Below are positions 8,275-50,457 of a stretch of 64,000 bases of DNA, one piece after another. The notes beneath the pieces are model-generated. The model did not search any database and was not told where the DNA came from. It saw only the letters and a list, made by a program, of their open reading frames with translations. The DNA is from Candidatus Saccharimonadota bacterium (GTDB taxonomy: Bacteria; Patescibacteriota; Saccharimonadia; Saccharimonadales; AWTP1-31): assembly GCA_052034955.1 (NCBI GenBank), contig JBPOHZ010000015.1:26998-90997 (forward strand), given 5' to 3'. Both the position numbers and the translations under genes were made by a program. Numbering within the stretch: the stretch's first letter is position 1; each line of letters opens with the position of its first letter.

Positions 8275-8347
8275 GACAACATTATACTTTGTTGTAGAGT
8301 CCGTCGAGCATCTAGTTCTCTGATGTTCAGTCTGTCATACTAGCTGT

Positions 8348-33391: not shown

Positions 33392-33440
33392 CGGCCAGCG
33401 ATGTTGTTATTCAAGATAAGCAGAAGTATAATCACTGCAA

Positions 33441-33989
33441 ATGGATGGGCCAAAAAAAGACAAGCAACCAGTTGTACGTTCTATTGAGAGAAGCTCAATA
33501 AAGCGATTTAAGAATAGATCAAATAGGCTTCTAGGTGGCTGGGGGTCTAGAAAGATTATGATAACGGTTATTGCTAGTAGTGGTCTTTTTGGGCTTTTGT
33601 TTCTAGGTATCAATGTATACAAAGATATGCGATATCAAAACTCAATCAAAGAACAAAAGCAGATTAACGACACCTCGAAAGCAGAAACAGTAAGTAACTA
33701 CGGTAAGGATCAGGCTAAAAATAGTCAGGACCTTCAAGGGGCTCCAAGCGAAAGTTGGGACAAAGAAAAACTAGATAAAGCTTACTTCAATCTAATATAT
33801 GCCGATAAAACTGGCTCCTCTAGTGATGTCTATAACATGCTATTTTTTATTGAGGTTGCTCAGAAATCAGGCCTGGATATAGATAACAATAGCTACGGCA
33901 TCGATCAGCAGGATAGGGATCAGATTAGGCAAAGAGCGGATGAAGTCACAAAGAAACGTACAACTAAGCCAAAGACAAACAATGAGTAG
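33441..33989 (+). CDS. hypothetical membrane-anchored protein
   Basis: TM helix ITVIASSGLFGLLFLGI; an alternative start at MITVI is possible. Confidence 0.4.
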   Translation: MDGPKKDKQPVVRSIERSSIKRFKNRSNRLLGGWGSRKIMITVIASSGLFGLLFLGINVYKDMRYQNSIKEQKQINDTSKAETVSNYGKDQAKNSQDLQGAPSESWDKEKLDKAYFNLIYADKTGSSSDVYNMLFFIEVAQKSGLDIDNNSYGIDQQDRDQIRQRADEVTKKRTTKPKTNNE

Positions 33990-35976
33990 GATATCTAAGA
34001 CTCTAAAGATAGCTACAGTCATGATGATCATGGTTATCGCTAGCTCGACCGGAAAGGTAGATGCTGCTAGATCGTTGGTTACGACATCTTCGTCACCAAC
34101 TTCGTTTCGAACTCTATGTGATGGAGGCACTCCAGTCGATTTTGCCGTTAGCCCATCAAATATCAGCATGGATGCGGCGACAGGGATTATGTCATACGAC
34201 ATTAACATTAATTGGCAAAGATGTAGCGGTGGGGTGGACACTCGTGCTTATGCCGTCTATAGCCTCGGACCAGAAATTTGCCCTTATTCTGGAATATACG
34301 GTCCTCCTCCAACCGGCTGGGTAACAGACTGTGTAAAATATATTGGCTCACCTGCATATAGCGTTCCGGGTAACAGCCTGTCGTGCTGGGGTGGTTCAAA
34401 TGCATCTTGTGTAACATCATCATTCGCTGGGGCAAGAAGAACCGAGAACCAGCCCACCTCTGTAGTCAATTCAGTCTCAATACCAATGACCTGGCAAATA
34501 CCTAATTGGGCTTCGCAGCCCGACACCGGCTCCTGGTCAATCTCTCAATCCATGTGTCAGTTCTACAAAACCGGCTTTAATTTCGGCACATATAATGATA
34601 ATCGATGTGTTAATGTGTCGATCTCTGTGTCGTGGGACGGCAGTGATCCGGTGCCTGTCGAGTCACAATATACCCCGACAGCGGCCACTATTTTGAATGA
34701 TGATGAAGATCCTACGCTGGCCACTCTAAACACAAGGGCAAGTCTAGACTTTGGCCCAGGGCATTCAGCCCAAATTAGATCAGAATATTATATTGTTCGG
34801 AATGGTACTAGCTCAAAAGAATATATAGACCCTTCAAATTTTGACGCACCGGGTATTTCATCCAACCCCATAAATACGAATATCACCTCTGGATGGGGAT
34901 CGGGCAATCTGACCATATCCAATCCCGTTGCCAAGCTTTCTCTTCAAGTTGGAGATAAAGTGTGTAGTTCGGCATCAATTGATCCCAGTAAGGTTTCGAC
35001 AACCAAGGGCGTTGTTACTGTGCTGCAAGGCCAGGTCTCAAGTGACCCAAGTTGTAGGTCGTACGTTAATCGACCATTTGTCTCCTTTTATGGAACGGAT
35101 GTTAGTGTAGGTGGAAGTTTTGAGGGAGGAGGCAGTTGTAATCAGCCCTCAAGTATAAGTACTTTCACAAAATCTGGTGCGAAGGGTTCGGGAGTGCAGT
35201 TCGCAGCTTTTGCGCTGGGTTCTATTAATAATTTCAACTCGGCTCGGTTGAGAACCTCTTCTCCTGTATCTCCAGTGGGGCTATCGTTTGCGAATACGGT
35301 AACTCCAGCCGGCAGCTTTGGCGCCGAACACTGTATAACAAACTATTTCTCACTTGCTTCAGCACTTACTCCAAACACGACTAATACTAATATCAATCTA
35401 AGCACAATCGATAGCGGTAATTACTACTATAAAAATCCAAGCACAATAACCATCTCCGGTGACATACCCAACGGCCGCAGGATAACAATATTCGTTGATG
35501 GCAATGTTCGGGTAGATGGTGACATTAACTATGCATCAGATACGTGGTCAGACAGGTCCCAGATACCTTTCTTAAGAGTAGTTACCAAGGGCGATATCTT
35601 TATAGAAAGTAACGTACAAAAAATTACTGGCTTTCTTGTCGCTCAGCCACATGGAGCCACAGGCGGGAATATAACAACATGCGTCGAACCTGGAAATAAT
35701 ACGGTCTTATCTGTTGATAAGCTAGCAAACAAGTGCAACAAGAAGCTAACTATAGATGGAGCGTTTGCCGCCAAGAAGGTTAATTTGCTGAGAGCCTACA
35801 AATCATTACGGGATGCCAGTTACTCGGGCGAGTTAAATGCTAATTCCAGCGCTGCGGCAGAGGTATTTAAATTTAGCCCTATTCACTATTTGGCATTACC
35901 CGGTCAACTAATAGGTGATCTAGATGGACCGTCGTCGGACTATGATTACTTTGCTGCGTTGCCGCCCATACTTTAG
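33982..35976 (+). CDS. large secreted Cys/Ser/Thr/Asn-rich protein, paralog A
   Basis: Sec-type signal peptide (MSRISKTLKIATVMMIMVIASSTGKVDA). The C-terminal approximately 300 aa are collinear with 36999..39305, both ending LPP(I/L)L. Confidence 0.6.
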   Translation: MSRISKTLKIATVMMIMVIASSTGKVDAARSLVTTSSSPTSFRTLCDGGTPVDFAVSPSNISMDAATGIMSYDININWQRCSGGVDTRAYAVYSLGPEICPYSGIYGPPPTGWVTDCVKYIGSPAYSVPGNSLSCWGGSNASCVTSSFAGARRTENQPTSVVNSVSIPMTWQIPNWASQPDTGSWSISQSMCQFYKTGFNFGTYNDNRCVNVSISVSWDGSDPVPVESQYTPTAATILNDDEDPTLATLNTRASLDFGPGHSAQIRSEYYIVRNGTSSKEYIDPSNFDAPGISSNPINTNITSGWGSGNLTISNPVAKLSLQVGDKVCSSASIDPSKVSTTKGVVTVLQGQVSSDPSCRSYVNRPFVSFYGTDVSVGGSFEGGGSCNQPSSISTFTKSGAKGSGVQFAAFALGSINNFNSARLRTSSPVSPVGLSFANTVTPAGSFGAEHCITNYFSLASALTPNTTNTNINLSTIDSGNYYYKNPSTITISGDIPNGRRITIFVDGNVRVDGDINYASDTWSDRSQIPFLRVVTKGDIFIESNVQKITGFLVAQPHGATGGNITTCVEPGNNTVLSVDKLANKCNKKLTIDGAFAAKKVNLLRAYKSLRDASYSGELNANSSAAAEVFKFSPIHYLALPGQLIGDLDGPSSDYDYFAALPPIL

Positions 35977-36022
35977 CTTAGGTTGTCATATCTATTAAGC
36001 ATAAGTATAATCAACTATAGAA

Positions 36023-37009
36023 ATGGAAGATCAAAAAAAAGGCGAAGTTGTAGATGTTCGCGGCGGCATGCGATTCAATCGTATGAATGTTAGGCATAGG
36101 CTGTCTAGAAGATCCAGAAGAATAGTTTTGTTTTCACTGGCCATTGTCTTTGTCGGGTTGGTTGCAGCCGGTTACTTTGCCTTGTTCAAGAGCCCGGCAC
36201 TAATAGTTGGCGGCCAAAGGATCAGCCGAGATCAGTATAGCTCATTGCTCAAACAGGCTGAGCTAAGTCAAATAAATGCCGAAGGCGCTAAAGAAACGAT
36301 TATTGAGTCTATAAAGTATCAACAGGCCGCTAAGAAGTTTGATATAAAGATAAATCAAGACGATTTAAAAAGACTAGAAGAGAACTCGACTCTTCCGGCA
36401 ACTTTCAAAGACGATATTTACTACTATGGCCTGAAGAAGTCATACATACTATTACAACTAGAAATTAAGAAAAGGGATGGCTTCGAGGGTTATGTCTTCT
36501 ACTATCCGTTTAGTCGTAACTTCTTAGATTCTGACCCGAAGACTAGCAATCCTCTTTTCAAGAATAAGGATGCAATTGAGTCCGATCGGCAAAAGGCCGA
36601 GGAGCGGGCACTTGCTGATTTACAAGGAATCAAGTCTGGAAAATCAAATCCAGATGATCTGGTTAAGGAGATACTAAACGATTCAAGCTTGATATATGGG
36701 AACGCTAGTAACGGAACACAACGCTTTGCCGTAGATAACAGGGGAGTCGAACTGTCTGATGGCTATGGTGCTGGAAAAGTTGTCGCTAGCAGATTTATGG
36801 ATATTCTTCCAAAAATGAAAGAAGGATCGGTTTCGGATATCAGAAAAGACGTCCAGAAATACCTAGAAGCTCAATCTAATAAGATTGTTTCTAATAACAC
36901 GGCTTATTACTTTGTGTACAAGACAAAGAATATTATTGGCGATAAAGACATTGTAGATAAGTTTAATAAAGAAGTATCCGGCATAAAGGTAGTAGATAAT
37001 GTTAAATAA
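36023..37009 (+). CDS. membrane-anchored SurA-N/PrsA-like chaperone-type protein
   Basis: Basic N-terminus plus one TM helix, then a helical periplasmic-chaperone-like region. Architecture resembles 52727..53788 but without the parvulin signature. Confidence 0.45.
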   Translation: MEDQKKGEVVDVRGGMRFNRMNVRHRLSRRSRRIVLFSLAIVFVGLVAAGYFALFKSPALIVGGQRISRDQYSSLLKQAELSQINAEGAKETIIESIKYQQAAKKFDIKINQDDLKRLEENSTLPATFKDDIYYYGLKKSYILLQLEIKKRDGFEGYVFYYPFSRNFLDSDPKTSNPLFKNKDAIESDRQKAEERALADLQGIKSGKSNPDDLVKEILNDSSLIYGNASNGTQRFAVDNRGVELSDGYGAGKVVASRFMDILPKMKEGSVSDIRKDVQKYLEAQSNKIVSNNTAYYFVYKTKNIIGDKDIVDKFNKEVSGIKVVDNVK

Positions 37010-39305
37010 CATGACACGAACTAGAAAATTACTTGCTATTTTTAGCCTGACTCTCGGATTTCTGGGTGTCTTTAACCTAACCCATTCGCCAAAAGTATCG
37101 GCTTTAGGCTGTTACCCGGGTGCGAATGCCGCTTACTTCAACGCGACAGTGGCGGTAAGGGTTCTAAACCCAGACGGCTCCTTTAGGAAGTGGTCAAATG
37201 ATTTCAACTTTAGAGCAACCGCGGCAGATCCTAAGCCCTTCGGTAATAAATGGCATGTGCCAGAAAACGGTATTGCATGGAGTGGAAGGCCTGGCTTTCC
37301 AACCAACACAGCCGACTTTAACGCCAGGGCTGGGGGAGCGGGTACAGAGTCATGCCCGACATGGGACGGTACCAATGCAACGACATTTGTATTCGGTGAT
37401 TCTACGGATGGGAAGGCGTACTTGGCCTGTAATTGGGGTTCTTGGGGCGGTGGTGCTGGCAATGATCATGGATTAGCGTTCTTTTTCAATCCACTTAGTA
37501 TCGGCGACGCCGAAGGCTCCGGTTATTGGGTGCCGGGAAGTAATGGTTATGTAGAACCCGGTGGAAGAAGAGATGCCAACAATCAAACCGCAGTTATAAC
37601 TTTTGTTTATCAACTGACATCGGTAGAGAATGAGCCTCAGGGTAACTTAGAGCAGGCCGATTGTAATGCGATTTCCGGGTGGGCAAAGGACTTAGACGCT
37701 TGGGGCGGCAGGGTAGAAGTACACATGTACTTTGATGGCCCTCCTGGGGTGGGTAGGGGGCTGAACATAGGCCTTACCAATCTTGACAGGCCTGATGTTG
37801 GTGGGCTGAACGGATTCTCTATTTCAGCTTCCGACCCAAGGATACCGGTAGATCTGTTTGATGGAGATAATCATACCGTTAATGTTTATGCTATTAACGT
37901 CGGTGGAGGCAATAATCAGCAAGTAAATAACAGCCCAAAGACGATTACTACTTGCTCACCACCAGCGCCTTCGATAAGTACGGCCGATCCGGTGGCCAGT
38001 GCAACATTCTCTCCGGATAGCGAAGATCCTACTTCGGTAACTTTCTCGGCATCAGTAAACATGACAGGCAGGGGCTATACAGTCAGCGCTGCGCGATATT
38101 ACTACTACATTAAGTCCGGAACGCTAACAGAGATAACAATAAATCGGTCAGATCTAGTTGCGTCACCATCGAGCAACCCTATCTCACAGAATATAACGGC
38201 ATCGACTAACTTTGGTGGAATAGTAACCATGGTAAATCCAGTATCAAAACTAGGTTTGGACGTCGGGGATCGGATATGTGTTAGGACTGCGGTGGATAAG
38301 TCGCAGGTCTCCATAAACTATAGAGGTACGGAGTCCACTCTGTCAGGAAGTAAGGACACTGCTAATCAGGGCTGTGTACGACTGGACAATAAACCGTATC
38401 TTTCGGTATATGGTAGTGATGTGAAAGCCGGGGGTGATATATCGGGACCTACATGCAATTATAGTAATGGCTCTATTAGCGCTTACACCAAAGGGGGTAC
38501 AAGAGGTAGCGGAGTTCAGCTGGCCGCTTTTGCCATGGGATCTGCAGGAAATATCTCTAACTTCAACACGGCTTTCAATAGAACTAGCTACCCATTACCA
38601 CCAGCCGATTTACAAGTATCAAGATATGGAATGAACAGTGGTGCTTGTATCCATGACTATTATCAAGATAGAAATACTACACCCTGGACGGGATTAAATG
38701 CATCGACAGAAGGCAAGTACTTTGTAGACGGCAGCATCACTCTTCCGGCTATGAATATTGGCGAAGATCAACACGTCTACCTATACGTAAAAGGCAACGT
38801 CACCATTAATGGACCGATTACTATGGATACCGGTCCATGGAGTGATAAATCAAAGATGCCGTCTCTGTACATTGTGTCCAACGGAAATATATACATAGAC
38901 AATGACGTTACAAAATTAGCTGGTACCTTTGTAGCGCAGCAAACAGGCAAGAAGATATACACCTGTTCAGAGGGTTCAAATCCTTACGAACTTAGTGAGG
39001 TCGACCAGATGTTTAATAGCTGTGGTAAACAATTGGTCGTTGATGGTGCATTTATAGCCAAGCAGGTTATCTTTGGTCGGACGTTCGGCACACTCAGGAA
39101 GAGTGGCTCAGACAATCCATATGGATCAAGCTCAGACAAGAATTGTTCTAGCAGTGTAACAGGGCAGTCCACTAACACCTGTGCTGCCGAAGTATTTAGG
39201 TTCAATCCGGTTCTTTATTTGGCTGAATCGCCAATATCTACCGAGTCTATAACCGGTTCATCTTCTGACTACGAGTTTGCTAGTAGTTTACCGCCATTAC
39301 TTTAG
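36999..39305 (+). CDS. large secreted Cys/Ser/Thr/Asn-rich protein, paralog B
   Basis: Signal peptide (MTRTRKLLAIFSLTLGFLGVFNLTHSPKVSA). Shares the blocks VGD..C.....D.S.VS, GS.G.GVQ.AAFA.GS, VDGAF.AK.V and AAEVF.F.P..YLA with paralog A. Confidence 0.6.
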   Translation: MLNNMTRTRKLLAIFSLTLGFLGVFNLTHSPKVSALGCYPGANAAYFNATVAVRVLNPDGSFRKWSNDFNFRATAADPKPFGNKWHVPENGIAWSGRPGFPTNTADFNARAGGAGTESCPTWDGTNATTFVFGDSTDGKAYLACNWGSWGGGAGNDHGLAFFFNPLSIGDAEGSGYWVPGSNGYVEPGGRRDANNQTAVITFVYQLTSVENEPQGNLEQADCNAISGWAKDLDAWGGRVEVHMYFDGPPGVGRGLNIGLTNLDRPDVGGLNGFSISASDPRIPVDLFDGDNHTVNVYAINVGGGNNQQVNNSPKTITTCSPPAPSISTADPVASATFSPDSEDPTSVTFSASVNMTGRGYTVSAARYYYYIKSGTLTEITINRSDLVASPSSNPISQNITASTNFGGIVTMVNPVSKLGLDVGDRICVRTAVDKSQVSINYRGTESTLSGSKDTANQGCVRLDNKPYLSVYGSDVKAGGDISGPTCNYSNGSISAYTKGGTRGSGVQLAAFAMGSAGNISNFNTAFNRTSYPLPPADLQVSRYGMNSGACIHDYYQDRNTTPWTGLNASTEGKYFVDGSITLPAMNIGEDQHVYLYVKGNVTINGPITMDTGPWSDKSKMPSLYIVSNGNIYIDNDVTKLAGTFVAQQTGKKIYTCSEGSNPYELSEVDQMFNSCGKQLVVDGAFIAKQVIFGRTFGTLRKSGSDNPYGSSSDKNCSSSVTGQSTNTCAAEVFRFNPVLYLAESPISTESITGSSSDYEFASSLPPLL

Positions 39306-39313
39306 GATATAAG

Positions 39314-39345
39314 CTTGCACAATTAGAAGTTGCTTATGCTATAAT
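39314..39345 (+). promoter_or_regulatory. promoter of the pilus operon (extended -10 TGCTATAAT)
   Basis: TTGCAC ... TGCTATAAT, then an AAGGAA Shine-Dalgarno before the pilM ATG at 39355. Confidence 0.45.
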
Positions 39346-39354
39346 TTAAGGAAT

Positions 39355-40395
39355 ATGAGCATACTGAGTGGGGTAAGTGAATTCTTTGGCCTCGACATAG
39401 GCACCACCGCTGTTCGATTAGTTGAGTTGCATAACTCAGGAAAATCGAAGGCGTTAGTTAAGTACGCTTACGTACCAATAGATCCAAACATTGCTATCAG
39501 CGACGCCCAAGGCGACCAACTAAAACTAGCCAATGCAATCAAAGACTTGATTGAACAGTCCAAGGTTACAACCAAGCATGTAGCTGTGGGTGTGCCTTCA
39601 CAGAGGGTGTTCACTACTGTCGTGGATATAGATAGATTGTCCGAGACCGAAATCTCCAAGACTATCCAGTACCAGGCAGACTCGCTTATTCCTACGCCAA
39701 TTATCGACTCTAAAATCGACTGGGCAGTAATTGGCGATTCACCAAAAGACAAAGCTAAAGTAGAAGTACTTCTTACCAGTGTAACTAACGACTTTATCGA
39801 ACAAAGGCTTGATATGCTGGAATCGATTGGTCTCAATGTTATAGCCTTTGAACCAGATCATTTAGCGCTTTCACGGGCAGTAATTCCTTTTGGCACAAAC
39901 GCAGCCCAGATGGTTGTCGATATAGGCAATAGGGCAACTGATATCGTTGTGTGCATGAATGGCGCGCCTCACTTAGCAAGAGCTATACCAACTGGTAGCG
40001 AAGCAATTATCCGGGCAGCTATTCAGAATCTAAGTATCGACGAAAAACAGGCGCAACAGTTTGTTAATAAATTTGGACTCAGCAAAGACAAGCTAGAGGG
40101 TCAGATTTATAATGCCATCATTGGGACTATAGATATTCTAGCCACCGAGATAGAGAAGTCGATCAAGTTTTTCCAGGCTCGTTATCCAGAGGTCAAGATC
40201 GAGAGAATCATTATGACTGGCGGCGCATCGGCGTTACCAGATTTTCCACTGTATATAGCCAATAAGTTTGGCCTTAACGTCGAAATAGGCAACGCTTGGA
40301 GGAATGTATCCTTCCCGGCAGATCGACAGGCGGAATTATTAGCTGCCTCCAACCATTTTGGGGTTGCAGCAGGCCTAGCGGAGCGTGATTCATGA
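39355..40395 (+). CDS. pilM: type IV pilus assembly protein PilM (actin-like ATPase)
   Basis: FGLDIGTTAVRLVEL phosphate-1 motif; ASKHA fold length. Confidence 0.85.
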   Translation: MSILSGVSEFFGLDIGTTAVRLVELHNSGKSKALVKYAYVPIDPNIAISDAQGDQLKLANAIKDLIEQSKVTTKHVAVGVPSQRVFTTVVDIDRLSETEISKTIQYQADSLIPTPIIDSKIDWAVIGDSPKDKAKVEVLLTSVTNDFIEQRLDMLESIGLNVIAFEPDHLALSRAVIPFGTNAAQMVVDIGNRATDIVVCMNGAPHLARAIPTGSEAIIRAAIQNLSIDEKQAQQFVNKFGLSKDKLEGQIYNAIIGTIDILATEIEKSIKFFQARYPEVKIERIIMTGGASALPDFPLYIANKFGLNVEIGNAWRNVSFPADRQAELLAASNHFGVAAGLAERDS

Positions 40396-41087
40396 TTCAG
40401 TTCAACCTACTTCCAGATGTAAAACAAGAATACCTAAAGGCAAGGCGCCAGAAGCACTCGGTTATTGTCATATCTTTGCTGGTGGCTGCATCGTCTTTGT
40501 TCATTTTCATAATGCTGCTAATGACTGTCTATGTCTTTCAGACTGATCATCTTAAGAAAGTAGACAATGATATTGCAGCTAAAACAAAAATTCTAAAAGA
40601 CACACAGGACTTGGATAAGATCTTAACTATCCAAAATCAGCTTGTCAGCCTACCGGGATTACACAGCAAGAAACCAGAGACCAGTCGGCTATTTAAGTTC
40701 ATATCACAAACTACTCCAGCAGAGGCCAGCGTTGGCAAAATTGATCTAGATTTTGCCACCAATTCGATTCAGATTACTGGCACCTCGGATAGCCTAGGAA
40801 CTGTTAATAAATATATCGATACCCTAAAGTTCACAACATATCAGATTGCCGGCGATTCCAAAACCGATTCGAAACCCTTTGGTAAGGTGGTGATGTCCGG
40901 GTTTACCAGAACTCCAGAAGGTGCAACATTCCAGATTAGCATGAACTTTGATATCGAGATATTCGATGTAACCAACAATGTTACGCTGGTCGTTCCAAAG
41001 AGCATTACAACAAGGTCTGAAACAGAGAAACCAAAGGAATTGTTCAAAGCCATTCCGGAACGTAAGCAAAATGGGGAAAATCAGTAA
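40392..41087 (+). CDS. pilN: type IV pilus assembly protein PilN
   Basis: MIQFNLLP..... followed by a single TM helix; overlaps pilM by 4 nt. Confidence 0.7.
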   Translation: MIQFNLLPDVKQEYLKARRQKHSVIVISLLVAASSLFIFIMLLMTVYVFQTDHLKKVDNDIAAKTKILKDTQDLDKILTIQNQLVSLPGLHSKKPETSRLFKFISQTTPAEASVGKIDLDFATNSIQITGTSDSLGTVNKYIDTLKFTTYQIAGDSKTDSKPFGKVVMSGFTRTPEGATFQISMNFDIEIFDVTNNVTLVVPKSITTRSETEKPKELFKAIPERKQNGENQ

Positions 41088-41761
41088 TGGCTAAATTTCA
41101 ACTAACAACCAAGAAAGTCCAGATAGATAAAGCGCAAGCGACGATTGTAGCTACAATCGGCATCGCTGTATTTGTTACTGTCTTCTCATTAGTATCATCC
41201 AAGTCTTTGTGGACTCAACGTACATACCAGGCCAAGGTTATATCAAAGAAAGAAGCGGCACGAGATCAGCTGATAACCAATGTAGAGTCGGTTAGGGGCT
41301 TAGTCACATCCTATAAGCAATTCGTTAATTCATCTACAAATATAATCGATGGAAACCCTTCCGGAAATGGCGAACGCGATGGTGATAACGCCCGGCTGGT
41401 ACTAGATGCGCTACCAAGCAAATACGATTTTCCAGCTCTAACTTCCAGTCTCGAAAAAATTCTAACCGATAGAAATTTCAAGATAGATGGAATTACAGGT
41501 GTTGACGACGAAGTCGCCCAGTCGGCAGTTTCCGAGAGTGGAGCGCCAACTCCTATAGAGATGCCTTTCCAGGTAAGCGTTGATAGCTCCCAGAGCGCAA
41601 TAGAGGAACTAGTAAAGGTGCTGGAAAAGTCTATCCGACCTTTTAATGTTCAAAAGATGACACTTCTTGCAGAAGAGGGCTCCCTAAAGATGACGGCCGA
41701 TATAAAGACTTACTTCCAACCAGAGAAGACTCTTAATACCAGGAAAGAGGTTGTAAAGTAA
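41087..41761 (+). CDS. pilO: type IV pilus assembly protein PilO-like
   Basis: N-terminal TM helix plus a periplasmic domain, in canonical position after pilN. Confidence 0.6.
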   Translation: MAKFQLTTKKVQIDKAQATIVATIGIAVFVTVFSLVSSKSLWTQRTYQAKVISKKEAARDQLITNVESVRGLVTSYKQFVNSSTNIIDGNPSGNGERDGDNARLVLDALPSKYDFPALTSSLEKILTDRNFKIDGITGVDDEVAQSAVSESGAPTPIEMPFQVSVDSSQSAIEELVKVLEKSIRPFNVQKMTLLAEEGSLKMTADIKTYFQPEKTLNTRKEVVK

Positions 41762-42015
41762 TGAAACAAAAAGACATCGCAACTTTTATGGTCGTAGGAA
41801 TTATCAGCGCTATTATATCCGTTGCCTTATCAAACTTGATCATCACTCCCTCCAAGATTAAATCTCAGGAAGCAGAGATCGTAGAGCCTATTACATCTAC
41901 TTTTCCGGTTCCTACCAGCAAGGATAAGTTTTTCAACAAGGACTCTATTAACCCTACTAAGTTGATCCAAATTGGCGAAGACAATAACGAAACTCCATTT
42001 GGGCCATCAAACTAA
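41761..42015 (+). CDS. small membrane protein (PilP-position, function unknown)
   Basis: One TM helix (FMVVGIISAIISVALSNLII); translationally coupled to pilO. Confidence 0.35.
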   Translation: MKQKDIATFMVVGIISAIISVALSNLIITPSKIKSQEAEIVEPITSTFPVPTSKDKFFNKDSINPTKLIQIGEDNNETPFGPSN

Positions 42016-42034
42016 AAGACAAGAGGAGCTCTAG

Positions 42035-43831
42035 TTGAGTGTTCTATCAGCAACAGTTCAAAAGCAGGTCGAAGAGGACTTTATAGACCAGGGTTTAATT
42101 ACCCCAGAACAACTTGAAGAGCTGCATAAGAAAGCCGAGTCGCTCAACAGCCCGATCCTCAGTCTATTGGTCAGCGAAGGGGTAGTCACCGACGAAGATC
42201 TAACTAGGACGACTGCCAAGGTTGCAAATGTTCCATATGTTAATCTAAGCACTGCCAAAATTGACGCCGATGTATTGGCGTTATTGTCACAGGAGATAGC
42301 CGAAAGATATATGGCCGTACCATTAGGCGAGATGCAACACCGTTTAGTGGTTGCCATGCTGGACGCAGATAACGTTCAGGCTGCTGACTTTTTAGCCAAC
42401 AAAATTGGTCGACCACTCAGAGTTTACGCGGCCAGCGAGGCCGGAATTAGGAGAATTCTAAAACAATATTCTGAACGTCTCGACAATAAAATGGTCGATC
42501 TTAAGGCGACTGCCGAGGCTGCGGCCACGCAGGATACGGCCGATAAAAAAGCCGAAGACGACAAGAATGCCTCGGTTCAGACTATTGTTCAGGACTCGCC
42601 GATCAGCAAGGCACTGTCTACTATTCTAGAATACGCCGCCAAGAACAGGGCAAGTGATATTCACATTGAACCTCTCGAGAAAGTACTCAAAATCAGGGCC
42701 CGAATCGATGGTGTGCTTCGTGAAATTATGAAGTTACCCAAGAGCACCGAAGCACCGCTGGTATCTCGTATTAAGATTCTGTCCAACCTTAAGATCGACG
42801 AACACCGTATACCACAGGACGGAGGTTTCGCCATTATGGTCGATAACCATGCTATCGATCTTCGTATCGCCATCAGTCCAGTTGTCTGGGGTGAGCAGGT
42901 GGTTATTCGTTTGCTGGACAAAAGCGGTACCAGCCTGAACCTAGACGACATGGGTTATCATGGACGAGCCCTAAGGACCATCAGGGAAGCTCTAAAGCAA
43001 CCAAACGGAATGATTCTAACCAGTGGACCCACTGGTTCGGGTAAGTCTACATCGCTCTACGCTCTTCTGCAGGAGATTAAAGACGACACCATTAACATCG
43101 TTACCCTGGAAGATCCTGTTGAATACAAAATGCAGGGTATCAACCAGATTCAGGTTAATGCCGAAGTTGGACTAACATTCGCTAACGGGCTAAGGTCTAT
43201 CCTGCGTCAAGACCCCGATGTTGTGATGGTTGGGGAAATTCGTGATAAAGAAACTGCCCAGCTGGCTGTTCAGGCTGCTCTAACTGGACACTTAGTGTTT
43301 AGCACTCTTCACACCAACTCGGCCGCCGGAATTCTGCCTCGTTTGTTAGATATGGGTATTGAGCCCTTCCTTATCGCCAGTACCGTCCACACCGTTATTG
43401 GTCAGCGATTAGTGCGCAGAACATCCGACCAAAAGACTACTTATCAGTCCGACAAGGCCGAAACAGCTGCCATTCAAGCAACACTCGGCGCTTTATTGCC
43501 AGCCACGGCTGCAGATCAGGCCAAGGCCGCCCAAGATTTAGGCTACGATAACTTGCCACTGGCTACCCAAAACGCTTATACTTTATTCAAGGGCGTAGAT
43601 GCTCCCGAAACACCCGGTGGGTATAAGGGGCGGATGGGATTATACGAAGTCTTCGAGATTAGTGAAGCCATCCAGGATCTTATCCTCAAGCGGTCCACAA
43701 GCGCCGAAATACAGAAGGCTGCTAGGGCCGAGGGCATGGTAACCATGCGCGAAGACGGATATTTAAAAGCATTAACAGGCCAAACAACTATATCCGAGAT
43801 CAATCGGGTAGCAGCAACAGATAGCGCATAA
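42035..43831 (+). CDS. pilB: type IV pilus extension ATPase PilB/GspE
   Basis: GspII_E N-domain, Walker A GPTGSGKST, and a tetracysteine-like region. Confidence 0.9.
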   Translation: MSVLSATVQKQVEEDFIDQGLITPEQLEELHKKAESLNSPILSLLVSEGVVTDEDLTRTTAKVANVPYVNLSTAKIDADVLALLSQEIAERYMAVPLGEMQHRLVVAMLDADNVQAADFLANKIGRPLRVYAASEAGIRRILKQYSERLDNKMVDLKATAEAAATQDTADKKAEDDKNASVQTIVQDSPISKALSTILEYAAKNRASDIHIEPLEKVLKIRARIDGVLREIMKLPKSTEAPLVSRIKILSNLKIDEHRIPQDGGFAIMVDNHAIDLRIAISPVVWGEQVVIRLLDKSGTSLNLDDMGYHGRALRTIREALKQPNGMILTSGPTGSGKSTSLYALLQEIKDDTINIVTLEDPVEYKMQGINQIQVNAEVGLTFANGLRSILRQDPDVVMVGEIRDKETAQLAVQAALTGHLVFSTLHTNSAAGILPRLLDMGIEPFLIASTVHTVIGQRLVRRTSDQKTTYQSDKAETAAIQATLGALLPATAADQAKAAQDLGYDNLPLATQNAYTLFKGVDAPETPGGYKGRMGLYEVFEISEAIQDLILKRSTSAEIQKAARAEGMVTMREDGYLKALTGQTTISEINRVAATDSA

Positions 43832-43859
43832 GACGCAAACATAAAGGGATAGGGAACAA

Positions 43860-44921
43860 ATGCAACCACGAATCGAGATTTTACTAGAAGAGGTCATCAA
43901 GAAGAAAGCTTCCGACCTTCACCTTCAAGTTGGCTTGCCACCTATGCTTCGTGTTGACGGCGCACTTGCACCAGTAAACGGCACCGAACCCCTCACCGAA
44001 GAAACTGTTGAATCTTTGGTGTTTGCAATTCTAGACGAAGATCAAAAACAGATTTTATTAAAAGACAAAGAATTCGACTTTTCATTTGCCTTTGGTGACC
44101 TGGGTCGTTTCCGTGTTAACGCTTTCCATGAACGAGGCAACTTAGCCGCCGCACTTCGTTTAATTCCTAACGAGATTCTTAGCATCGAACAGCTTGGCTT
44201 GCCGCCAATAGTAAATAAGTTTGCCGATTACCCTCGAGGATTAGTTCTGGTTACCGGGCCAACCGGATCAGGTAAATCAACTTCATTGGCAGCTATGGTT
44301 AATAAGATCAACCACGAACGATCAACTCATATCGTAACCATCGAAGATCCAATCGAATTTACCCATAAGTCAATCAAGTCGGTCATCGTTCAGAGGGAAG
44401 TCCACTACGATACATATTCTTTCTCGGCTGCGCTTCGATCAAGCCTTCGTCAAGATCCTGATGTGGTACTCATCGGAGAAATGCGTGACCTAGAAACTAT
44501 TAGCTCAGCCATAACCATCGCCGAAACCGGACACTTAGTTTTTGCTACTCTTCACACTAACTCGGCAGCACAGAGCATTGACCGTATGATAGATGTTTTT
44601 CCGCCACACCAACAGCCACAGATTCGATCCCAGTTAGCTAACATCTTGATGGCTATCTGTTCACAGCGTCTCATTCCAGCTATTGGTGGTGGACGTATGG
44701 CTGCAGCCGAGATTCTGGTAGCAACACCAGCTGTGCGTAACATAATCCGCGAAGGTAAAAGCCACCAGCTAGAAGCCGTTATTCAGACCGGTGCTGAGTT
44801 CGGAATGCAGTCTATGGACAAAACGCTGGTATCTCTTATCCATAACGGAACCATAACTTACGAAGAAGCTCGTAACTATGCCGTTGACCTCGACGAACTA
44901 GATAGGTTAATGAGAAGCTAA
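43860..44921 (+). CDS. pilT: twitching motility/retraction ATPase PilT
   Basis: Approximately 350 aa; GPTGSGKST Walker A; the AIRNLIRE motif appears here as AVRNIIREGK. Confidence 0.9.
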   Translation: MQPRIEILLEEVIKKKASDLHLQVGLPPMLRVDGALAPVNGTEPLTEETVESLVFAILDEDQKQILLKDKEFDFSFAFGDLGRFRVNAFHERGNLAAALRLIPNEILSIEQLGLPPIVNKFADYPRGLVLVTGPTGSGKSTSLAAMVNKINHERSTHIVTIEDPIEFTHKSIKSVIVQREVHYDTYSFSAALRSSLRQDPDVVLIGEMRDLETISSAITIAETGHLVFATLHTNSAAQSIDRMIDVFPPHQQPQIRSQLANILMAICSQRLIPAIGGGRMAAAEILVATPAVRNIIREGKSHQLEAVIQTGAEFGMQSMDKTLVSLIHNGTITYEEARNYAVDLDELDRLMRS

Positions 44922-44922
44922 A

Positions 44923-46140
44923 ATGCAGACTTTCGAATATATAGCACGCGATAGCAAAAGTGGCCAGAAGGTCAAGTCTACTGTTTCTGCTGATAGCGAA
45001 CAGGCTGCCGCAAAGCTGATTCGGGACCAAGGATTGGCCCCTTTGAATATAAAGCTGGATAAAGTCGAATCAAACGGAATAAGCGGATTCTTTAACAGGA
45101 TTAAAACCGCCGATAAGGTGCTATTTTCTCGACAACTTTCTACCTTGATTAATGCTGGACTTCCTTTGGTGCAAAGCCTAAGGAGTGTAGCCAGCCAGAC
45201 GCAGAACAAGACCCTGCATTCGGTTATCAACCAGATTATCTCAGACGTCGAGGGCGGTACGGCTTTATCGGTAGCTTTTGGTCGACATCCTAAGGCCTTT
45301 AATAAAGTCTTTATTAGTATGGTGGCAGCCGGTGAAGCATCCGGAACACTCGACAAGGCATTAGAGCGTTTGGCAAACCAGCAAGAGAAAGACGCCGAGA
45401 TACTCAGTAAGGTTAGGGGAGCTCTAATCTACCCTGCGGTTGTGATGTTCGTCATGTTCGGCGTAATCGGATTTATGGTGGTCAAGGTTCTGCCCCAAGT
45501 CGAGACTCTATATAAAGACCTTCCCGGAGCCCAGCTCCCAATCCTGACTAGAATGCTACTTGCTCTTTCCCACGCGATTATTAGCTATTGGTGGATCTTT
45601 ATAATTGTCATTTTGTTCCTGGCAGTATTTACCGGACGATGGGCCAGAACGGTAGCCGGTAAGCAGGTGATTGATAAGCTCAAGATGACTATGTGGCCGG
45701 TAGGACCGTTATTTATGAAGCTCTATATGGCTCGTTTTGCTCGAACAGGTGCCACACTTGTAAGTAGTGGTGTGCCGCTGCTTCAGATGCTTCAAATTAC
45801 GGGTGACGCTATCAGCAACGTTCATGTCGAAAAGTCTTTGTCGCAGGCCTCGGAAAAAGTTAAAGGTGGTAAGGCATTGTCTGAAGCCCTAGAAGGAGAC
45901 CCCAACTTCCTGATTCTGGTGCCAAATATGTTAAGGATCGGAGAACAATCAGGTGCCTTAGAGTCAATGCTCGAGAAAATTGCTGACTACTACGAAAAGG
46001 AAGTCGACACCCAAATCCGCAATATATCTAGCATCATCGAGCCAGTCTTGATGGTAATACTTGGTGTTTTCGCCTTTATAATCGTCGCAGCCGTTCTTTT
46101 GCCGATCTATGGCCTCGCCGGGCAGAATATAATCAGCTAA
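44923..46140 (+). CDS. pilC: type IV pilus platform protein PilC (GspF family)
   Basis: Two GspF repeats and three TM helices. Confidence 0.9.
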   Translation: MQTFEYIARDSKSGQKVKSTVSADSEQAAAKLIRDQGLAPLNIKLDKVESNGISGFFNRIKTADKVLFSRQLSTLINAGLPLVQSLRSVASQTQNKTLHSVINQIISDVEGGTALSVAFGRHPKAFNKVFISMVAAGEASGTLDKALERLANQQEKDAEILSKVRGALIYPAVVMFVMFGVIGFMVVKVLPQVETLYKDLPGAQLPILTRMLLALSHAIISYWWIFIIVILFLAVFTGRWARTVAGKQVIDKLKMTMWPVGPLFMKLYMARFARTGATLVSSGVPLLQMLQITGDAISNVHVEKSLSQASEKVKGGKALSEALEGDPNFLILVPNMLRIGEQSGALESMLEKIADYYEKEVDTQIRNISSIIEPVLMVILGVFAFIIVAAVLLPIYGLAGQNIIS

Positions 46141-46217
46141 ATTGCTTGCATTTTAATCATAAGCATCATATATTTAGATCATCACAATAACGTAACTAAT
46201 GTAGGGGGCATACATAC

Positions 46218-46643
46218 ATGCTACAAAATATAAAAAAACGAACAGAAGGCTTCACAATTATCGAAGTTTTGATCGTCCTAGCAATTGCTGGACTAATCAT
46301 GCTTATCGTGTTCCTAGCAGTTCCAGCTTTACAGCGTAACTCTCGAAACACCGAAATTCGCAACGAAGCATCTCGCTTGGCAACAAGCGCTAACGAATTT
46401 GTTACTAACGCCAACGGTGTCGTACCGGTTGCAGCTGACGTCCCAGCAATTCAAACGTCTGCTGGCCTATCAAGGATTAGTGGCGTGACATTTGGCGCTG
46501 GAACTACAGCAGCAAGAGCTGCTCGATTGGTCGCACCTGGTACTTGTGCCGGCACAACTGCAACTGCTACAGGAGCCCAGGCTCGTCAAGTAGCCATTCA
46601 GTTCGGCCTTGAAGGTGGACAAACAGGTTGTGTCTCAATCTAG
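46218..46643 (+). CDS. pilA: type IV (major) pilin
   Basis: Class III signal K(K)RTEGFTIIEVLIVLAIAGLI with G at -1 and E at +5; followed by a strong terminator. Confidence 0.85.
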   Translation: MLQNIKKRTEGFTIIEVLIVLAIAGLIMLIVFLAVPALQRNSRNTEIRNEASRLATSANEFVTNANGVVPVAADVPAIQTSAGLSRISGVTFGAGTTAARAARLVAPGTCAGTTATATGAQARQVAIQFGLEGGQTGCVSI

Positions 46644-46663
46644 TAGATAGCAATTAGGTCACA

Positions 46664-46692
46664 AAAAATAGCCCCCTCGGGGGCTATTTTTT
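46664..46692 (+). terminator. rho-independent terminator after the pilin gene
   Basis: AAAATAGCCCCC-tcg-GGGGGCTATTTTTT perfect hairpin plus a T-run. Confidence 0.8.
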
Positions 46693-46710
46693 ATATGCTA
46701 GTATAACTAC

Positions 46711-47523
46711 ATGATAATAGTAATGCTTGTTGTTTGGGGGCTATGCCTTGGTAGCTTTGCTAATGCTGCAGTATGGCGTCTGTATAAGCAGTCTAAGGGT
46801 CAAAAAGGTAATAAGTACTCTATCAGTCGAGGCAGATCAATGTGTACTCACTGCAAGCACCTTCTGGCTCCTAAGGACCTTGTTCCGGTATTCAGCTGGC
46901 TTTACCTAAAGGGTAAGTGCAGATATTGCCTTAAGCCAATTCAAGATAATCCTTTACCAGAGCTTATAACCCCGATTCTGTTCTTGGTGTCGTATATCTA
47001 TTGGCCTCATAGCTGGGACGTTTACGGCGTATACTTGTTTGTATTTTGGCTGATTTATATCGTCGGTTTCGTGATTCTGTCATTGTACGATCTACGATGG
47101 TACCTTCTTCCCAACAAGGTAATAGTAGTTTTATCAGTACTTTTTGCCACCCAACTGCTGGGCGAGGTGCTATTTTTTGACCAGACCCCGGGATATCTTA
47201 TCCGAGTTATGGGAGGTAGTTTGGTCGGAGGCGGAATATTCTGGTTAATCTTTCAGGTGTCTAAGGGTAAATGGATTGGTGGCGGGGACGTTAAATTGGG
47301 GGCGCTGCTCGGAGCCGTCTTAGTTGGACCGGTCTTTGCGGCAATGATGATCTTCTTTGCTTCGGTGATTGGAACACTTCTATCTGTACCGCTGTTATTA
47401 AACAAGAAATTAAAAGTAAACTCCAAGCTGCCGTTTGGTCCATTATTAATGACTGCAACAGTAATTGTATATTTATTCGGGCCAAGTTTATGGAGCTGGT
47501 ATCTGTCGAATCTAGGGGTTTAG
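46711..47523 (+). CDS. pilD: prepilin peptidase (A24 family)
   Basis: N-terminal CxxC...CxxC zinc motif, eight TM helices, catalytic Asp pair. Confidence 0.85.
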   Translation: MIIVMLVVWGLCLGSFANAAVWRLYKQSKGQKGNKYSISRGRSMCTHCKHLLAPKDLVPVFSWLYLKGKCRYCLKPIQDNPLPELITPILFLVSYIYWPHSWDVYGVYLFVFWLIYIVGFVILSLYDLRWYLLPNKVIVVLSVLFATQLLGEVLFFDQTPGYLIRVMGGSLVGGGIFWLIFQVSKGKWIGGGDVKLGALLGAVLVGPVFAAMMIFFASVIGTLLSVPLLLNKKLKVNSKLPFGPLLMTATVIVYLFGPSLWSWYLSNLGV

Positions 47524-47551: not shown

Positions 47552-48370
47552 ATGAAACGTGGGCTGGACTCTCTAGGGTTCACTATTATAGAAACGATGA
47601 TTGTGTTGGCTGTATCGGCAGCTATTTTGGTGTCCGCTTTGGGGGTTGTATCGGGATCACAAAACAAGAATTTGTTCAAACAAGCCATGAACGACGTTAA
47701 CGAGCAAATGACAACCGTGATCAATAATGTGGCAAATGGTTACTATCCACGAAATCAGAATCTATCTTGTACTGAGTCTATTGGCGGTACATCACTTAAT
47801 ATTGCCACCGGTACTGGAGACAGGGGTACGGTAAAGAACTGTATTTTCTTGGGACGGGTAGTTCAGTTCCTGGATAACGAAGATTTCTTTAGGATTTATA
47901 GCGTAGCCGGTTTAAGACAAACAGGGACTGTTGTTAAGAAAGAGGTAGAAGGCATGGCCGAAGCGAAGGCTACTACAGTGCCTAGTCCAGACGTAATACC
48001 GCTTAAAAATGGACTAACTGTCGAGGCCGCTCGAGTGGTGGGCGGGGGTAATATCGGAGCGATAGGATTCTTCACCAGTTTCGGACGGACGGCGAGTGGT
48101 CAGTTACAGTCGGGTGCTTTAGCTACGGATTTTGGTCCAATTCCTGGATCTAACTTAACCATTGATTCAGTGGTTTCTCAGGTTATTGATAGTTCAGCGG
48201 CATCCTTCCGCTCTCGATACGACACTGGCGCAACAAAAAATCCTCCAACAGGAGTTCAAGTTTGTTTTAGGAGTGGAACTACAGCAGATGAGTTTGGAAT
48301 AATTCAGATAGGCGGTGGTAACAGGGTTGCGGCCAACGAGATGACGATAAGATTTGGGAGTTGTTGGTAA
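47552..48370 (+). CDS. pilin-like protein (minor pilin 1)
   Basis: Class III signal LGFTIIETMIVLAV. Confidence 0.7.
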   Translation: MKRGLDSLGFTIIETMIVLAVSAAILVSALGVVSGSQNKNLFKQAMNDVNEQMTTVINNVANGYYPRNQNLSCTESIGGTSLNIATGTGDRGTVKNCIFLGRVVQFLDNEDFFRIYSVAGLRQTGTVVKKEVEGMAEAKATTVPSPDVIPLKNGLTVEAARVVGGGNIGAIGFFTSFGRTASGQLQSGALATDFGPIPGSNLTIDSVVSQVIDSSAASFRSRYDTGATKNPPTGVQVCFRSGTTADEFGIIQIGGGNRVAANEMTIRFGSCW

Positions 48371-48373
48371 GTT

Positions 48374-48808
48374 ATGGTACGCAATAATCAAACCGGTGAC
48401 ACTATTGTGGAAGTGCTTATTGCCATTGTTGTTGTTAGTTCAGTGCTAGTCGGTGCATTCTCCATAAGCAACCTCAGCCTCAAGCAAATTAGAATGGCCC
48501 AGGAAAGGGGAGAGGCCCAAGAAATTGCAAAGCAATCTACAGAGAACCTTAACAGCATGATTAAGTTCGACGACACGCTTTTAACTAGGACCACTCCTTT
48601 TTGTAAGAGTGCTACAACTTTTGGTGCCGTAGATGTTACTGATGTGGCCTGTTCATCTGGTAGTGAGGGAAGATACAAAACAACTATCACTAAGGATAAT
48701 CCGGGTGATGTCACTGATTTTGGATTTAGAGTAAATGTTAGTTGGCCGGGTTTGACAGGTTCATTACAGGAAGTAACAATTAATTATCGAGTAAAGACTA
48801 CGGACTAA
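48374..48808 (+). CDS. pilin-like protein (minor pilin 2)
   Basis: GDTIVEVLIAIVVVS N-terminal helix. Confidence 0.65.
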   Translation: MVRNNQTGDTIVEVLIAIVVVSSVLVGAFSISNLSLKQIRMAQERGEAQEIAKQSTENLNSMIKFDDTLLTRTTPFCKSATTFGAVDVTDVACSSGSEGRYKTTITKDNPGDVTDFGFRVNVSWPGLTGSLQEVTINYRVKTTD

Positions 48809-49419
48809 TGAAGAGCAATAACAATGGATTCACAATTGTAGAGTTAATGATAGCGACTACTGTATTCTCTACGGTTTTGTTGCTATGTACTTTCGGGCTT
48901 ATGGAGATTGGCAAGACCTACTACAAGGGTAGTACTATCGCCCGTACACAGAACGTAGCACGTCAGATAGTAACTACACTATCGGAAGCAGTTCAATATG
49001 GATCTTCGGAGCCAACTTTCACAGGAACGCCACCAAACGAAGTTGTGGCCTCAATTCTTACGGCTTCCAATGGGGTCTTCTGTATCGGCGATTCCAGGTT
49101 TACGTACTCAAGTGCCGTTGCTAACGGTACATCAAACGGCCTAGTTATTGATAACAAGCCCCCGGGATCCTGTGTAGCATCAGCTATATCTAATGGCAAA
49201 CAACTCCTAGGAACTAATATGAGGTTGACTAGATTTCAGATACTCAAAAACGGAGGCAATTACAACATAATTGTTAAAGTTACTTACGGCGACACGGACT
49301 TGATTAATCTGGTTGATGTCTCTCAGCCGGTCTATGGTAGCTGTAACGGAGGCAGGGGAAGCCAATTCTGTGCCGCTTCACAGCTAGAGACCACTGTACA
49401 CAGACGACTAAGTAGTTAA
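48808..49419 (+). CDS. pilin-like protein (minor pilin 3)
   Basis: NGFTIVELMIATTVFS. Confidence 0.7.
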   Translation: MKSNNNGFTIVELMIATTVFSTVLLLCTFGLMEIGKTYYKGSTIARTQNVARQIVTTLSEAVQYGSSEPTFTGTPPNEVVASILTASNGVFCIGDSRFTYSSAVANGTSNGLVIDNKPPGSCVASAISNGKQLLGTNMRLTRFQILKNGGNYNIIVKVTYGDTDLINLVDVSQPVYGSCNGGRGSQFCAASQLETTVHRRLSS

Positions 49420-49440
49420 TAATATAAGCATAAGGTTAAT

Positions 49441-50457
49441 ATGAAGAAACTGACGAATCTACGAAACAATCAAGACGGACTGGTGGCGATCATTGTGACC
49501 ATGTTAATTATGATTGTCTTAACTCTTATCGTTACTGGATTTGCCCAGCTGGCCCGTCGTGAACAAAGGGAAGCACTAGATCGCCAGTTATCAACTCAGG
49601 CATTTTATGCAGTTGAGTCAGGAATAAACGATGCCCGGAGGCTATTAAAAACCACTCCAGCACTTGTCGCTGGTGGAAACAAGGATAACTGTGCAACTAC
49701 CGATTCATCATTAGATAGCGGCAGTACTTTCCAATACACCTGTCTGTTAATTACACAGCGGTTAACCAGTCTAAAGTACCAAAACGTTCAGACTAATAAA
49801 TCGACTGTTGTGCCAATAAATCAAGATCTAGCCAGTGGATCTACTAATGATAAGCTAACCATATCATGGCAGAACAAAGACGGCTCCAACAACCTATATA
49901 CAGGAACTGGATTCCCTCCAGCTACAACCTGGAATAGTGACTTTGTAGGAGTACTTAGGATAGATATTACAGAGGCGGATGTTTTGTCTACCAATAGTCT
50001 TACCTCTAAAACATATACCGCCTTTTTAAGGCCTAGCTCAGATATGTCGGTTCCAGGTACCACAAGCTTTACAACTGTTCCTAGCGAGCAGGGACAGGTG
50101 ATCAATGCAAAGTGTAACGGTACCGGTAAAAAGTTGTGTTTTGTCACAATAGATGGCATCAGGGACACAAGCAAATATTATCTACGCATGAAATCAATCT
50201 ATAACGTTGCCGATGTTGACATCTGCGGAGGCAATTTCTCTTGTAGTAACAACGTCGTACTTACTAATGCCCAGGCAGAAGTTGACGTTACCGGTAGAGC
50301 GGGCGACATTCTTAAGAGAGTTCAAGTAAGACTCCCTGTAGAAGAGCTAAGTGGAAACGAAATAACTACTCCAGAATATGCCTTAGAGAGCTCGGATAGT
50401 ATCTGTAAGCTTATCTCTGTATGGCCAGGCGGTGGTAATGCTGGTGTCTGCCCTTAG
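49441..50457 (+). CDS. pilin-like protein (minor pilin 4, PilX-like size)
   Basis: NQDGLVAIIVTMLIMIVLTLI hydrophobic N-terminal helix; Cys-containing C-terminal domain. Confidence 0.6.
   Translation: MKKLTNLRNNQDGLVAIIVTMLIMIVLTLIVTGFAQLARREQREALDRQLSTQAFYAVESGINDARRLLKTTPALVAGGNKDNCATTDSSLDSGSTFQYTCLLITQRLTSLKYQNVQTNKSTVVPINQDLASGSTNDKLTISWQNKDGSNNLYTGTGFPPATTWNSDFVGVLRIDITEADVLSTNSLTSKTYTAFLRPSSDMSVPGTTSFTTVPSEQGQVINAKCNGTGKKLCFVTIDGIRDTSKYYLRMKSIYNVADVDICGGNFSCSNNVVLTNAQAEVDVTGRAGDILKRVQVRLPVEELSGNEITTPEYALESSDSICKLISVWPGGGNAGVCP

Follow-up and report, generated by a model that had tools for sequence, protein, structure and literature searches.

In a 64,000-nucleotide (nt) stretch of a Candidatus Saccharimonadota genome (contig JBPOHZ010000015.1, positions 26,998 to 90,997; hereafter the window), four plus-strand genes, U182, A, S328 and B in this order, lie 5′ of pilM of a type IV pilus operon and form two tandem two-gene cassettes, U182+A and S328+B. 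We are confident that proteins A and B are extracytoplasmic, modular and adhesin-like, belong functionally to the pilus locus and require a membrane-anchored partner. Structure modelling shows their conserved C-terminal unit as an immunoglobulin (Ig)-like domain, a β-solenoid of the ComZ/ice-binding type and a tail. The family sharing this module has no curated model and no literature that we found, and is specific to Saccharibacteria as far as the named genomes show.

A and B are clearly paralogs, as proposed in the first-pass annotation, a reading of the DNA made without database searches. BLASTP aligns them at 37% identity over 483 columns (E = 2e-71), collinearly from A206 and B305 to the last residue. 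The shared C-terminus noted earlier is indeed collinear, but it covers about 480 residues rather than about 300; the similarity starts at about B305, slightly upstream of the Ig-like region of B. The noted LPP(I/L)L ends are borne out, as the chains end in LPPIL or LPPLL. The N-termini look like the noted Sec signal peptides: each runs from a basic segment into a hydrophobic one and an A-x-A-like site, and residues 2–28 of B are modelled as a helix. The noted richness in Ser, Thr, Asn and Cys also matches the computed percentages of A and B (Ser 14.0 and 10.4%, Thr 8.3 and 8.1%, Asn 6.9 and 8.1%, Cys 2.1 and 1.7%, or 14 and 13 Cys), and Gly is high too.

None of A, B, U182 and S328 matches Pfam or NCBIfam above threshold, in keeping with the earlier statement that no domain was recognised in A and B. 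These two show only a sub-threshold DUF7305 (PF23981) match on the solenoid core, of 19.9 bits in A (E = 7.6e-4) and 18.0 bits in B (E = 2.8e-3) at a gathering score of 27, and DUF7305 appears at E ≤ 0.01 in six of 65 relatives (best 1.1e-6). In other proteins, DUF7305 may occur together with PilX_N. Neither A nor B matches the DUF3494/IBP-1 family of Pfam at E ≤ 1. A, B and their relatives have no Pfam match to PilY1/PilC and no Pfam or NCBIfam match to enzyme families. The family profiles retrieved only chance-level Ig light-chain matches or nothing from the PDB sequences.

The AlphaFold2 model of B, made with 90 aligned relatives, is an all-β chain with a mean predicted local distance difference test (pLDDT) score of 85, and only β-sandwich domains precede its solenoid. 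Foldseek with the full-length model gave generic tandem matches of the Ig or fibronectin type III (FN3) kind only. The last 314 residues modelled alone reach a pLDDT of 86.4 and a predicted template modelling score of 0.87; the module is not predicted to be disordered. Predicted disorder is what the first-pass annotation had named as speaking against its own proposal. The top matches of this C-terminal model are triangular ice-binding/ComZ solenoids, with about twice the score of lyase-like folds. In B, Cys427 of the Ig-like region is paired with Cys459 at the start of the solenoid domain.

Conservation within the module peaks in the final four residues of B, at 3.8 bits per position. These residues have pLDDT below 50 in both model runs, and the tail is not packed in the monomer model. 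A terminus that is conserved and modelled as unstructured follows the pattern expected of a peptide binding another molecule.

We searched a profile of the module shared by A and B against 1.84 billion representative proteins (clusters at 50% identity) and obtained 4,881 proteins at E ≤ 1e-3, including 2,139 at E ≤ 1e-30. The family size is visible only by such an exhaustive profile search; word-indexed protein searches gave very few relatives (8, 10 and 6 matches). The module is at the extreme C-terminus in all of the best 150 of the 4,881, in proteins of 277–1,361 aa. A hydrophobic leader is present in 125 of 133 full-length members and a prepilin motif in none of them, so true pilins are rejected as their identity. 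The named genomes with the family are all from Saccharibacteria. Literature searches on DUF7305 and on ice-binding folds in Saccharibacteria gave no relevant result. Neither of the two papers on Saccharibacteria pili takes up a gene 5′ of pilM, and the published pilus analyses of TM7x and Southlakia epibionticum do not mention such a gene.

The tail has the consensus [YF][DQE]x[IF]T[ST]L[PS]P[VIL]L-COOH and is near-invariant across all partner and head types; position −3 is Pro in all 156 members and position −1 is Leu in 155 of them. Because the tail hardly changes while the partners do, its receptor is more likely a conserved component than the partner. In all 156 members the chain ends at LPP[VI]L-COOH with nothing after it. 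The hydrophobic helix and basic tail that follow the motif in sortase (LPXTG) substrates and in proteins with other C-terminal sorting signals are absent, so anchoring of this type is rejected.

One locus, L011 (8801–10602), separates the tail from the solenoid. There, a small anchored protein and a 435-aa secreted protein with an unrelated body are encoded directly 5′ of pilM in overlapping genes, and the larger protein ends in ...AAEVFIYTPEMFFNSPFRSNAPYQSITNLPPVL, the family tail without the solenoid. Thus, the tail behaves as a portable, separate unit. The pair lies downstream of a normal family gene broken by an assembly gap (100 N, 7873–7972), and no second tail without a solenoid occurs in about 125 loci.

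The N-terminal heads are far more diverse, making at least 17 unlinked groups among 136 representatives, and heads of the A type and of the B type are each found in further genomes. Their commonest component is the domain at residues 207–320 of B (motifs GWA.D.D, VH.Y.DG, YR.D and V.VYAI), which has no Pfam model. It forms three to four tandem repeats in proteins outside the family and is found there alongside an M23 peptidase (P0008) or ricin lectin domains (P0007). This domain may bind cell-wall material.

The family gene keeps a fixed place. B runs to 39305 and pilM begins at 39355, immediately downstream as annotated before. The gene is also directly before pilM in each of the eight loci that the module identified in named Saccharibacteria genomes, where PilM is 61–90% identical to that of the window and the heads are mostly unrelated. 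The same holds for P0006, P0061, P0132, P0012, P0149 and P0041, which were picked only by length or head type.

Metagenome contigs scanned for the tail motif and a following stop gave at least 120 stretches, and 110 open reading frames (ORFs) were confirmed as family members by our own hidden Markov model. All metagenome counts here and below are among the matches listed. Of 100 loci with informative downstream sequence, 92 have pilM downstream, mostly less than 200 nt after the stop and otherwise up to about 3.8 kb away, beyond a second cassette or, in L082, beyond pilB and pilC. The pilus linkage expected in related genomes is therefore found, and the homologs are not scattered away from pilus genes, as they would be in the other outcome that the first-pass annotation had set against itself. 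The remaining eight loci comprise five distal copies of tandem pairs, two with too little flank and one unexplained (L064). Tandem pairs like that of the window make up about 7% of the loci.

Two of these loci differ in their surroundings. L064 is a 33-aa fragment at a contig end with a tail match, and the 6 kb downstream hold neither pilM nor another pilus gene. In L082 (2219–9091), the family gene precedes a second type of pilus locus with the order pilB-pilC-pilM, whose PilB and PilM are 42% and 24% identical to those of the window.

Both partners, U182 and S328, contain a single hydrophobic span near the N-terminus and lack Cys. The first-pass annotation had A and B bracket a membrane-anchored gene; this is right for S328 (36023–37009), which lies between them with its single span, but U182, the partner of A, was overlooked. 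The SurA-N or chaperone call for S328 reflects a SurA_N_3 match of 16.7 bits (E = 0.0068), which is below the cut-off of 27.2. A U182 homolog with 44% identity precedes an A-type protein in L015 with the same 8-nt overlap, and a C-terminal fragment of one does likewise in L019. The S328 orthologs are on the same contigs as the B orthologs.

More generally, a same-strand upstream ORF (at least 90 aa, ending −150 to +60 nt from the family start) accompanies 45 of 56 complete family ORFs from the metagenomes, and 38 of the 45 have a strong N-terminal hydrophobic segment. Their commonest overlap is 4 nt and commonest length 175–205 aa. In the window, L015 and L019, U182-type partners accompany A-type heads, and SurA-N-like partners go with B-type heads elsewhere and in the window. 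This covariation was considered as a sign of contact and rejected, because both genes are inherited together as one cassette. Further partners are weakly TPR-like, and L016 has a CW_binding_2 protein upstream.

In several lineages, the SurA-like partner and the family protein form a single chain, which argues that the two act together. P0061, present in six assemblies at the same spot before pilM and by position an equivalent of S328, is such a fusion with a SurA_N_3 match of 35.6 bits. The fused proteins (P0061, P0149, P0028 and others) have a single N-terminal anchor, the internal leader being a decayed remnant only. By hhalign, S328 aligns with the fused forms at a probability of 93%, over 49 columns only; direct BLASTP between S328 and P0061 finds no similarity.

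Elsewhere in the window, 52727–53788 encodes a canonical membrane-anchored protein with SurA_N_3 (59.6 bits) and parvulin/Rotamase domains, similar to PpiD/PrsA. It is probably the counterpart of SEML1_0121 of S. epibionticum and presumably the general foldase. With a canonical foldase at that place, S328 is at best an extra, specialised relative.

The solenoid has precedents in type IV pili. The paper on ComZ of Thermus thermophilus found its solenoid closest to an ice-binding protein and argued that it sits at the pilus tip, and a 2026 preprint reports this solenoid for every cyanobacterial PilX pilin and suggests it as a substitute for the PilY1 tip plug. As the triangular ice-binding-protein-like β-solenoid is common to these proteins and the A/B family, the novel surface system of the first-pass annotation was an overstatement. 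The parts, namely the ComZ-type solenoid, the Ig-like spacers and the SurA-like or TPR-like partners, are known. What is new is their arrangement, with the solenoid detached from the pilin, exported by Sec, carrying a free C-terminal peptide, paired or fused with an anchor and fixed before pilM.

ComZ and PilX have the solenoid within a GspK-like pilin fold, ahead of its last strand, in a chain with the pilin N-terminal helix. In the family, by contrast, the solenoid forms the C-terminal domain, and the protein is exported by Sec and has no pilin part. The family adds the Ig-like domains, the variable heads, the conserved free tail and the membrane-anchored partner. The DUF3494/IBP-1 proteins also have the right-handed triangular solenoid with a flanking helix but no pilus linkage, and there is no reason to expect ice binding in A and B.

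PilY1 of Pseudomonas and Myxococcus and PilC of Neisseria are large pilus-associated adhesins that have a Sec leader and are not pilins. Their genes are in pilus loci, their N-terminal binding region varies, and their conserved C-terminal domain becomes part of the minor-pilin tip complex. The family is similarly non-pilin, with a Sec leader, a pilus-locus gene, a variable N-terminus and a conserved C-terminus. However, the PilY1 C-terminal domain is a β-propeller and that of the family a β-solenoid, and the family genes are beside pilM, not among the minor pilins as for PilY1. PilY1 is not known to have a dedicated membrane partner.

Terminal peptides that dock are known from TcpF/TcpB and CofJ/CofB, where a short disordered one places a Sec-exported protein on a minor pilin (PMC9565799, PMC10120004). 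The family is likewise Sec-exported and encoded in a pilus locus, but the TcpF/CofJ signal is N-terminal and the proteins are small, single-purpose and released, whereas the candidate signal of the family is C-terminal. As to the partners, the PpiD, PrsA and SurA-N chaperones have an N-terminal membrane anchor and behind it an outward-facing helical domain of the SurA-N kind. S328 has the anchor and may have such a domain, but its match is weak and it has no parvulin domain, and the partners in the wider family are mostly unrelated proteins of about 180 aa.

We tentatively lean, at a probability somewhat short of even, to A and B being Sec-exported, non-pilin, PilY1/ComZ-like accessory adhesins that dock on the pilus via the conserved solenoid and tail. 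The variable head on its Ig-like spacers would do the binding, and the conserved C-terminal unit would connect to a conserved pilus component. After export, the family protein would be held or folded at the membrane by its partner (U182 for A and S328 for B). Docking on the pilus by the solenoid and tail would follow, most likely at the minor-pilin priming or tip complex, and the extending pilus would bring the head across the wall into contact with a host cell. The two cassettes would provide this organism with two alternative heads.

This docking reading is preferred on several grounds: pilus tips use this solenoid fold, the variable head and conserved C-terminus repeat the PilY1/PilC layout, and the gene is fixed beside pilM. 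The tail argues for it by being invariant across unrelated partners and portable in L011, with TcpF and CofJ as the precedents for a terminal peptide docking on a minor pilin. It also agrees with the weak sequence link to DUF7305 and with the PilX-like minor pilin of the window (49441–50457, 338 aa), which has no Pfam-detectable accessory domain beyond PilX_N and no DUF7305 match.

A bolder version, which we consider unlikely, is that the family is a split ComZ-type tip pilin. The Sec-exported solenoid would dock in trans on a minor pilin by its C-terminal peptide (...Y-x-x-I-T-S-L-P-P-V-L-COOH), which would serve as a portable pilus-specific loading or export tag. If so, the type IV pilus of these ultrasmall bacteria, enclosed by a wall, would also serve to deliver exchangeable heads for host recognition, and the tail-only protein of L011 would be a different cargo with the same tag.

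Several observations weigh against docking on the pilus. The fused forms keep their N-terminal anchor, so they are membrane-tethered and cannot ride the pilus tip unless cleaved. The gene is about 8 kb from the minor pilins, unlike pilY1, and each cassette has its own promoter-like site, so it is probably not co-transcribed with pilM. P0016, a distant relative (E = 2e-16), does not adjoin pilus genes, and hence the pilM rule holds for the core family only. In cultured S. epibionticum ML1, no family gene is beside either pilus machinery locus, where pilM (SEML1_0104) directly follows ychF (SEML1_0103) and pilB2 (SEML1_0758) directly follows aspS. As the pili of this strain are functional and essential, with most pilus genes essential in transposon sequencing, the family is accessory and not needed for piliation, and a core machine part is rejected as its identity. 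The pilus adjacency could also by itself reflect shared use in host attachment.

The last point is taken up by an explanation that we find somewhat unlikely, in which A and B are pilus-independent surface adhesins anchored, possibly via the tail, by the upstream partner, which is membrane-bound or in some genomes wall-binding, with the solenoid as a cell-proximal stalk and the head outward. Anchored partners at most loci, with their frequent 4-nt overlap, the covalent fusions in several lineages, the CW_binding_2 gene of L016 and the promoter-like sites of the cassettes all agree with it. SurA-N-like and TPR-like scaffolds bind extended peptides, and partners of both kinds are matched, though weakly. 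Adhesins usually have a conserved proximal part and a variable head at the distal end, and Shewanella SfIBP_1 (6bg8) also joins tandem β-sandwiches to a C-terminal domain of this fold. However, the tail is near-invariant though the U182-type, SurA-like and TPR-like partners differ wholly. Anchoring also leaves unexplained the pilM adjacency in about 92% of the loci across deep divergence and the use of a pilus-tip fold. By comparison, we give quite a low probability to release of A and B as TcpF/CofJ-type exoproteins, whose tail would be an export signal binding a minor pilin so that the extending pilus pushes the protein through the wall. The conserved, portable tail modelled as unstructured, the Sec leaders and the genes in a pilus locus suit this mechanism, which is known for type IVb pili. 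But the known signals are N-terminal and belong to diderms whose type IVb pili cross an outer membrane, a barrier not evident here; the fused anchored forms could not be released without cleavage, and the multi-domain adhesin-like build suggests retention.

It is still less probable, in our view, that the family supplies an envelope part of the pilus machine, such as a wall-spanning collar or guide that replaces the missing secretin complex, held by the partner and bound to PilN/PilO via the module. The constant position beside pilMNO and the membrane tethering by partner or fusion fit such a part, and no secretin gene is among the ORFs and Pfam matches of the window. Highly variable and shuffled heads are unusual for a machine component, though, and about 7% of the loci have two copies with different heads, while S. 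epibionticum pili work with no family gene beside their machinery loci. Secreted β-helix enzymes, polysaccharide lyases or hydrolases attacking the host cell wall, are the least credible identity and scarcely probable. The best fold scores about twice as high as the lyase-like ones, its characterised members, the ice-binding proteins and ComZ, are not known to be enzymes, and the profile searches above give no enzyme family.

Saccharibacteria live attached to other bacteria and need type IV pili for attachment. A conserved pilus-type module joined to rapidly changing heads is what a host-range determinant is expected to look like, and A and B are good candidates for pilus-associated parts that recognise host cells. 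The family presents the ComZ-type tip solenoid outside a pilin, accompanied by its own membrane partner and ending in a short, invariant peptide. Its absence beside the pilus loci of one well-studied oral strain may explain why it went unnoticed, and limits immediate genetic tests to other isolates.

The features of the region are listed in Table 1. Protein B as a whole spans 36999–39305 (768 aa). The domain limits of A are carried over from the B model via the A/B alignment. An upstream ATG at 33940 would make A 678 aa long, and the N-termini of homologs favour the ATG at 33982. U182 overlaps the start of A by 8 nt and S328 that of B by 11 nt.

Table 1. Coordinates in the window of the two cassettes and the pilus genes downstream.
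Feature	Position	Strand	Description
Promoter-like site TTGTTA-17-TATAAT	33404..33432	+	10/12 consensus positions; ends 9 nt before U182 start codon
U182, partner of A	33441..33989	+	182 aa; basic N-terminus, one hydrophobic span (residues 37–60), ~120-aa extracytoplasmic domain
Protein A	33982..35976	+	664 aa; leader 1–28, Cys-rich A-type head 29–234, Ig-like ~235–354, β-solenoid ~355–641, tail 642–664 (LPPIL); P0017, E 2e-181
Promoter-like site TTGTCA-17-TATAAT	35983..36011	+	11/12, best match of the region; ends 12 nt before S328 start codon
S328, partner of B	36023..37009	+	328 aa; one N-terminal hydrophobic span (30–62), weak SurA_N_3 match, no parvulin domain
Protein B, leader (1–35) and B-type head (36–206, β-rich)	36999..37616	+	
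Protein B, second domain (207–320), β-sandwich	37617..37958	+	
Protein B, conserved Ig-like region (321–455)	37959..38363	+	VGDxxC motif and Cys427
Protein B, β-solenoid (456–745)	38364..39233	+	Flanking helix 665–674; conserved Cys486/550 and Cys656/675
Protein B, C-terminal tail (746–768), ...SSDYEFASSLPPLL	39234..39305	+	Most conserved positions of the module; pLDDT <50
Promoter-like site TGCACA-18-TATAAT (with TG)	39316..39345	+	Ends 10 nt before pilM start codon
Type IV pilus operon	39355..47523	+	pilM, pilN, pilO, 84-aa membrane protein, pilB, pilT, pilC, major pilin, prepilin peptidase pilD
Four minor pilins	47552..50457	+	Last = 49441–50457, 338 aa, PilX_N 33.6 bits

The three best plus-strand promoter-like matches in 33200–39600 are those in the three intergenic gaps, 9–12 nt before the starts of U182, S328 and pilM; as such matches are in total no more frequent there than expected from shuffling, they are singled out by position only. 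U182-A, S328-B and the pil operon are likely three transcription units. The −10 hexamers of these sites end so near to the ATG that a ribosome-binding site would have no obvious room in between, suggesting that the mRNAs are leaderless or nearly so.

Upstream on the minus strand, 31562–32245 encodes a membrane protein of 227 aa that has several spans and a Cys-rich loop (CTQKVAYCGYCPKDRLEGYYC), between a phosphoribosyltransferase gene and ychF. The related genome locus L001 has no gene at this place. An unrelated 459-aa leaderless protein (7538–8917) there occupies the place of the U182-A cassette, so the distal cassette is a lineage-specific gain or loss.

Between pilO and pilB, 41761–42015 encodes an 84-aa protein with one N-terminal hydrophobic span and no family match. 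All related loci for which genes were called (L001, L013, L016, L017, L018 and L019) have a gene for 77–85 aa at this position, and the protein may be an undescribed conserved pilus component.

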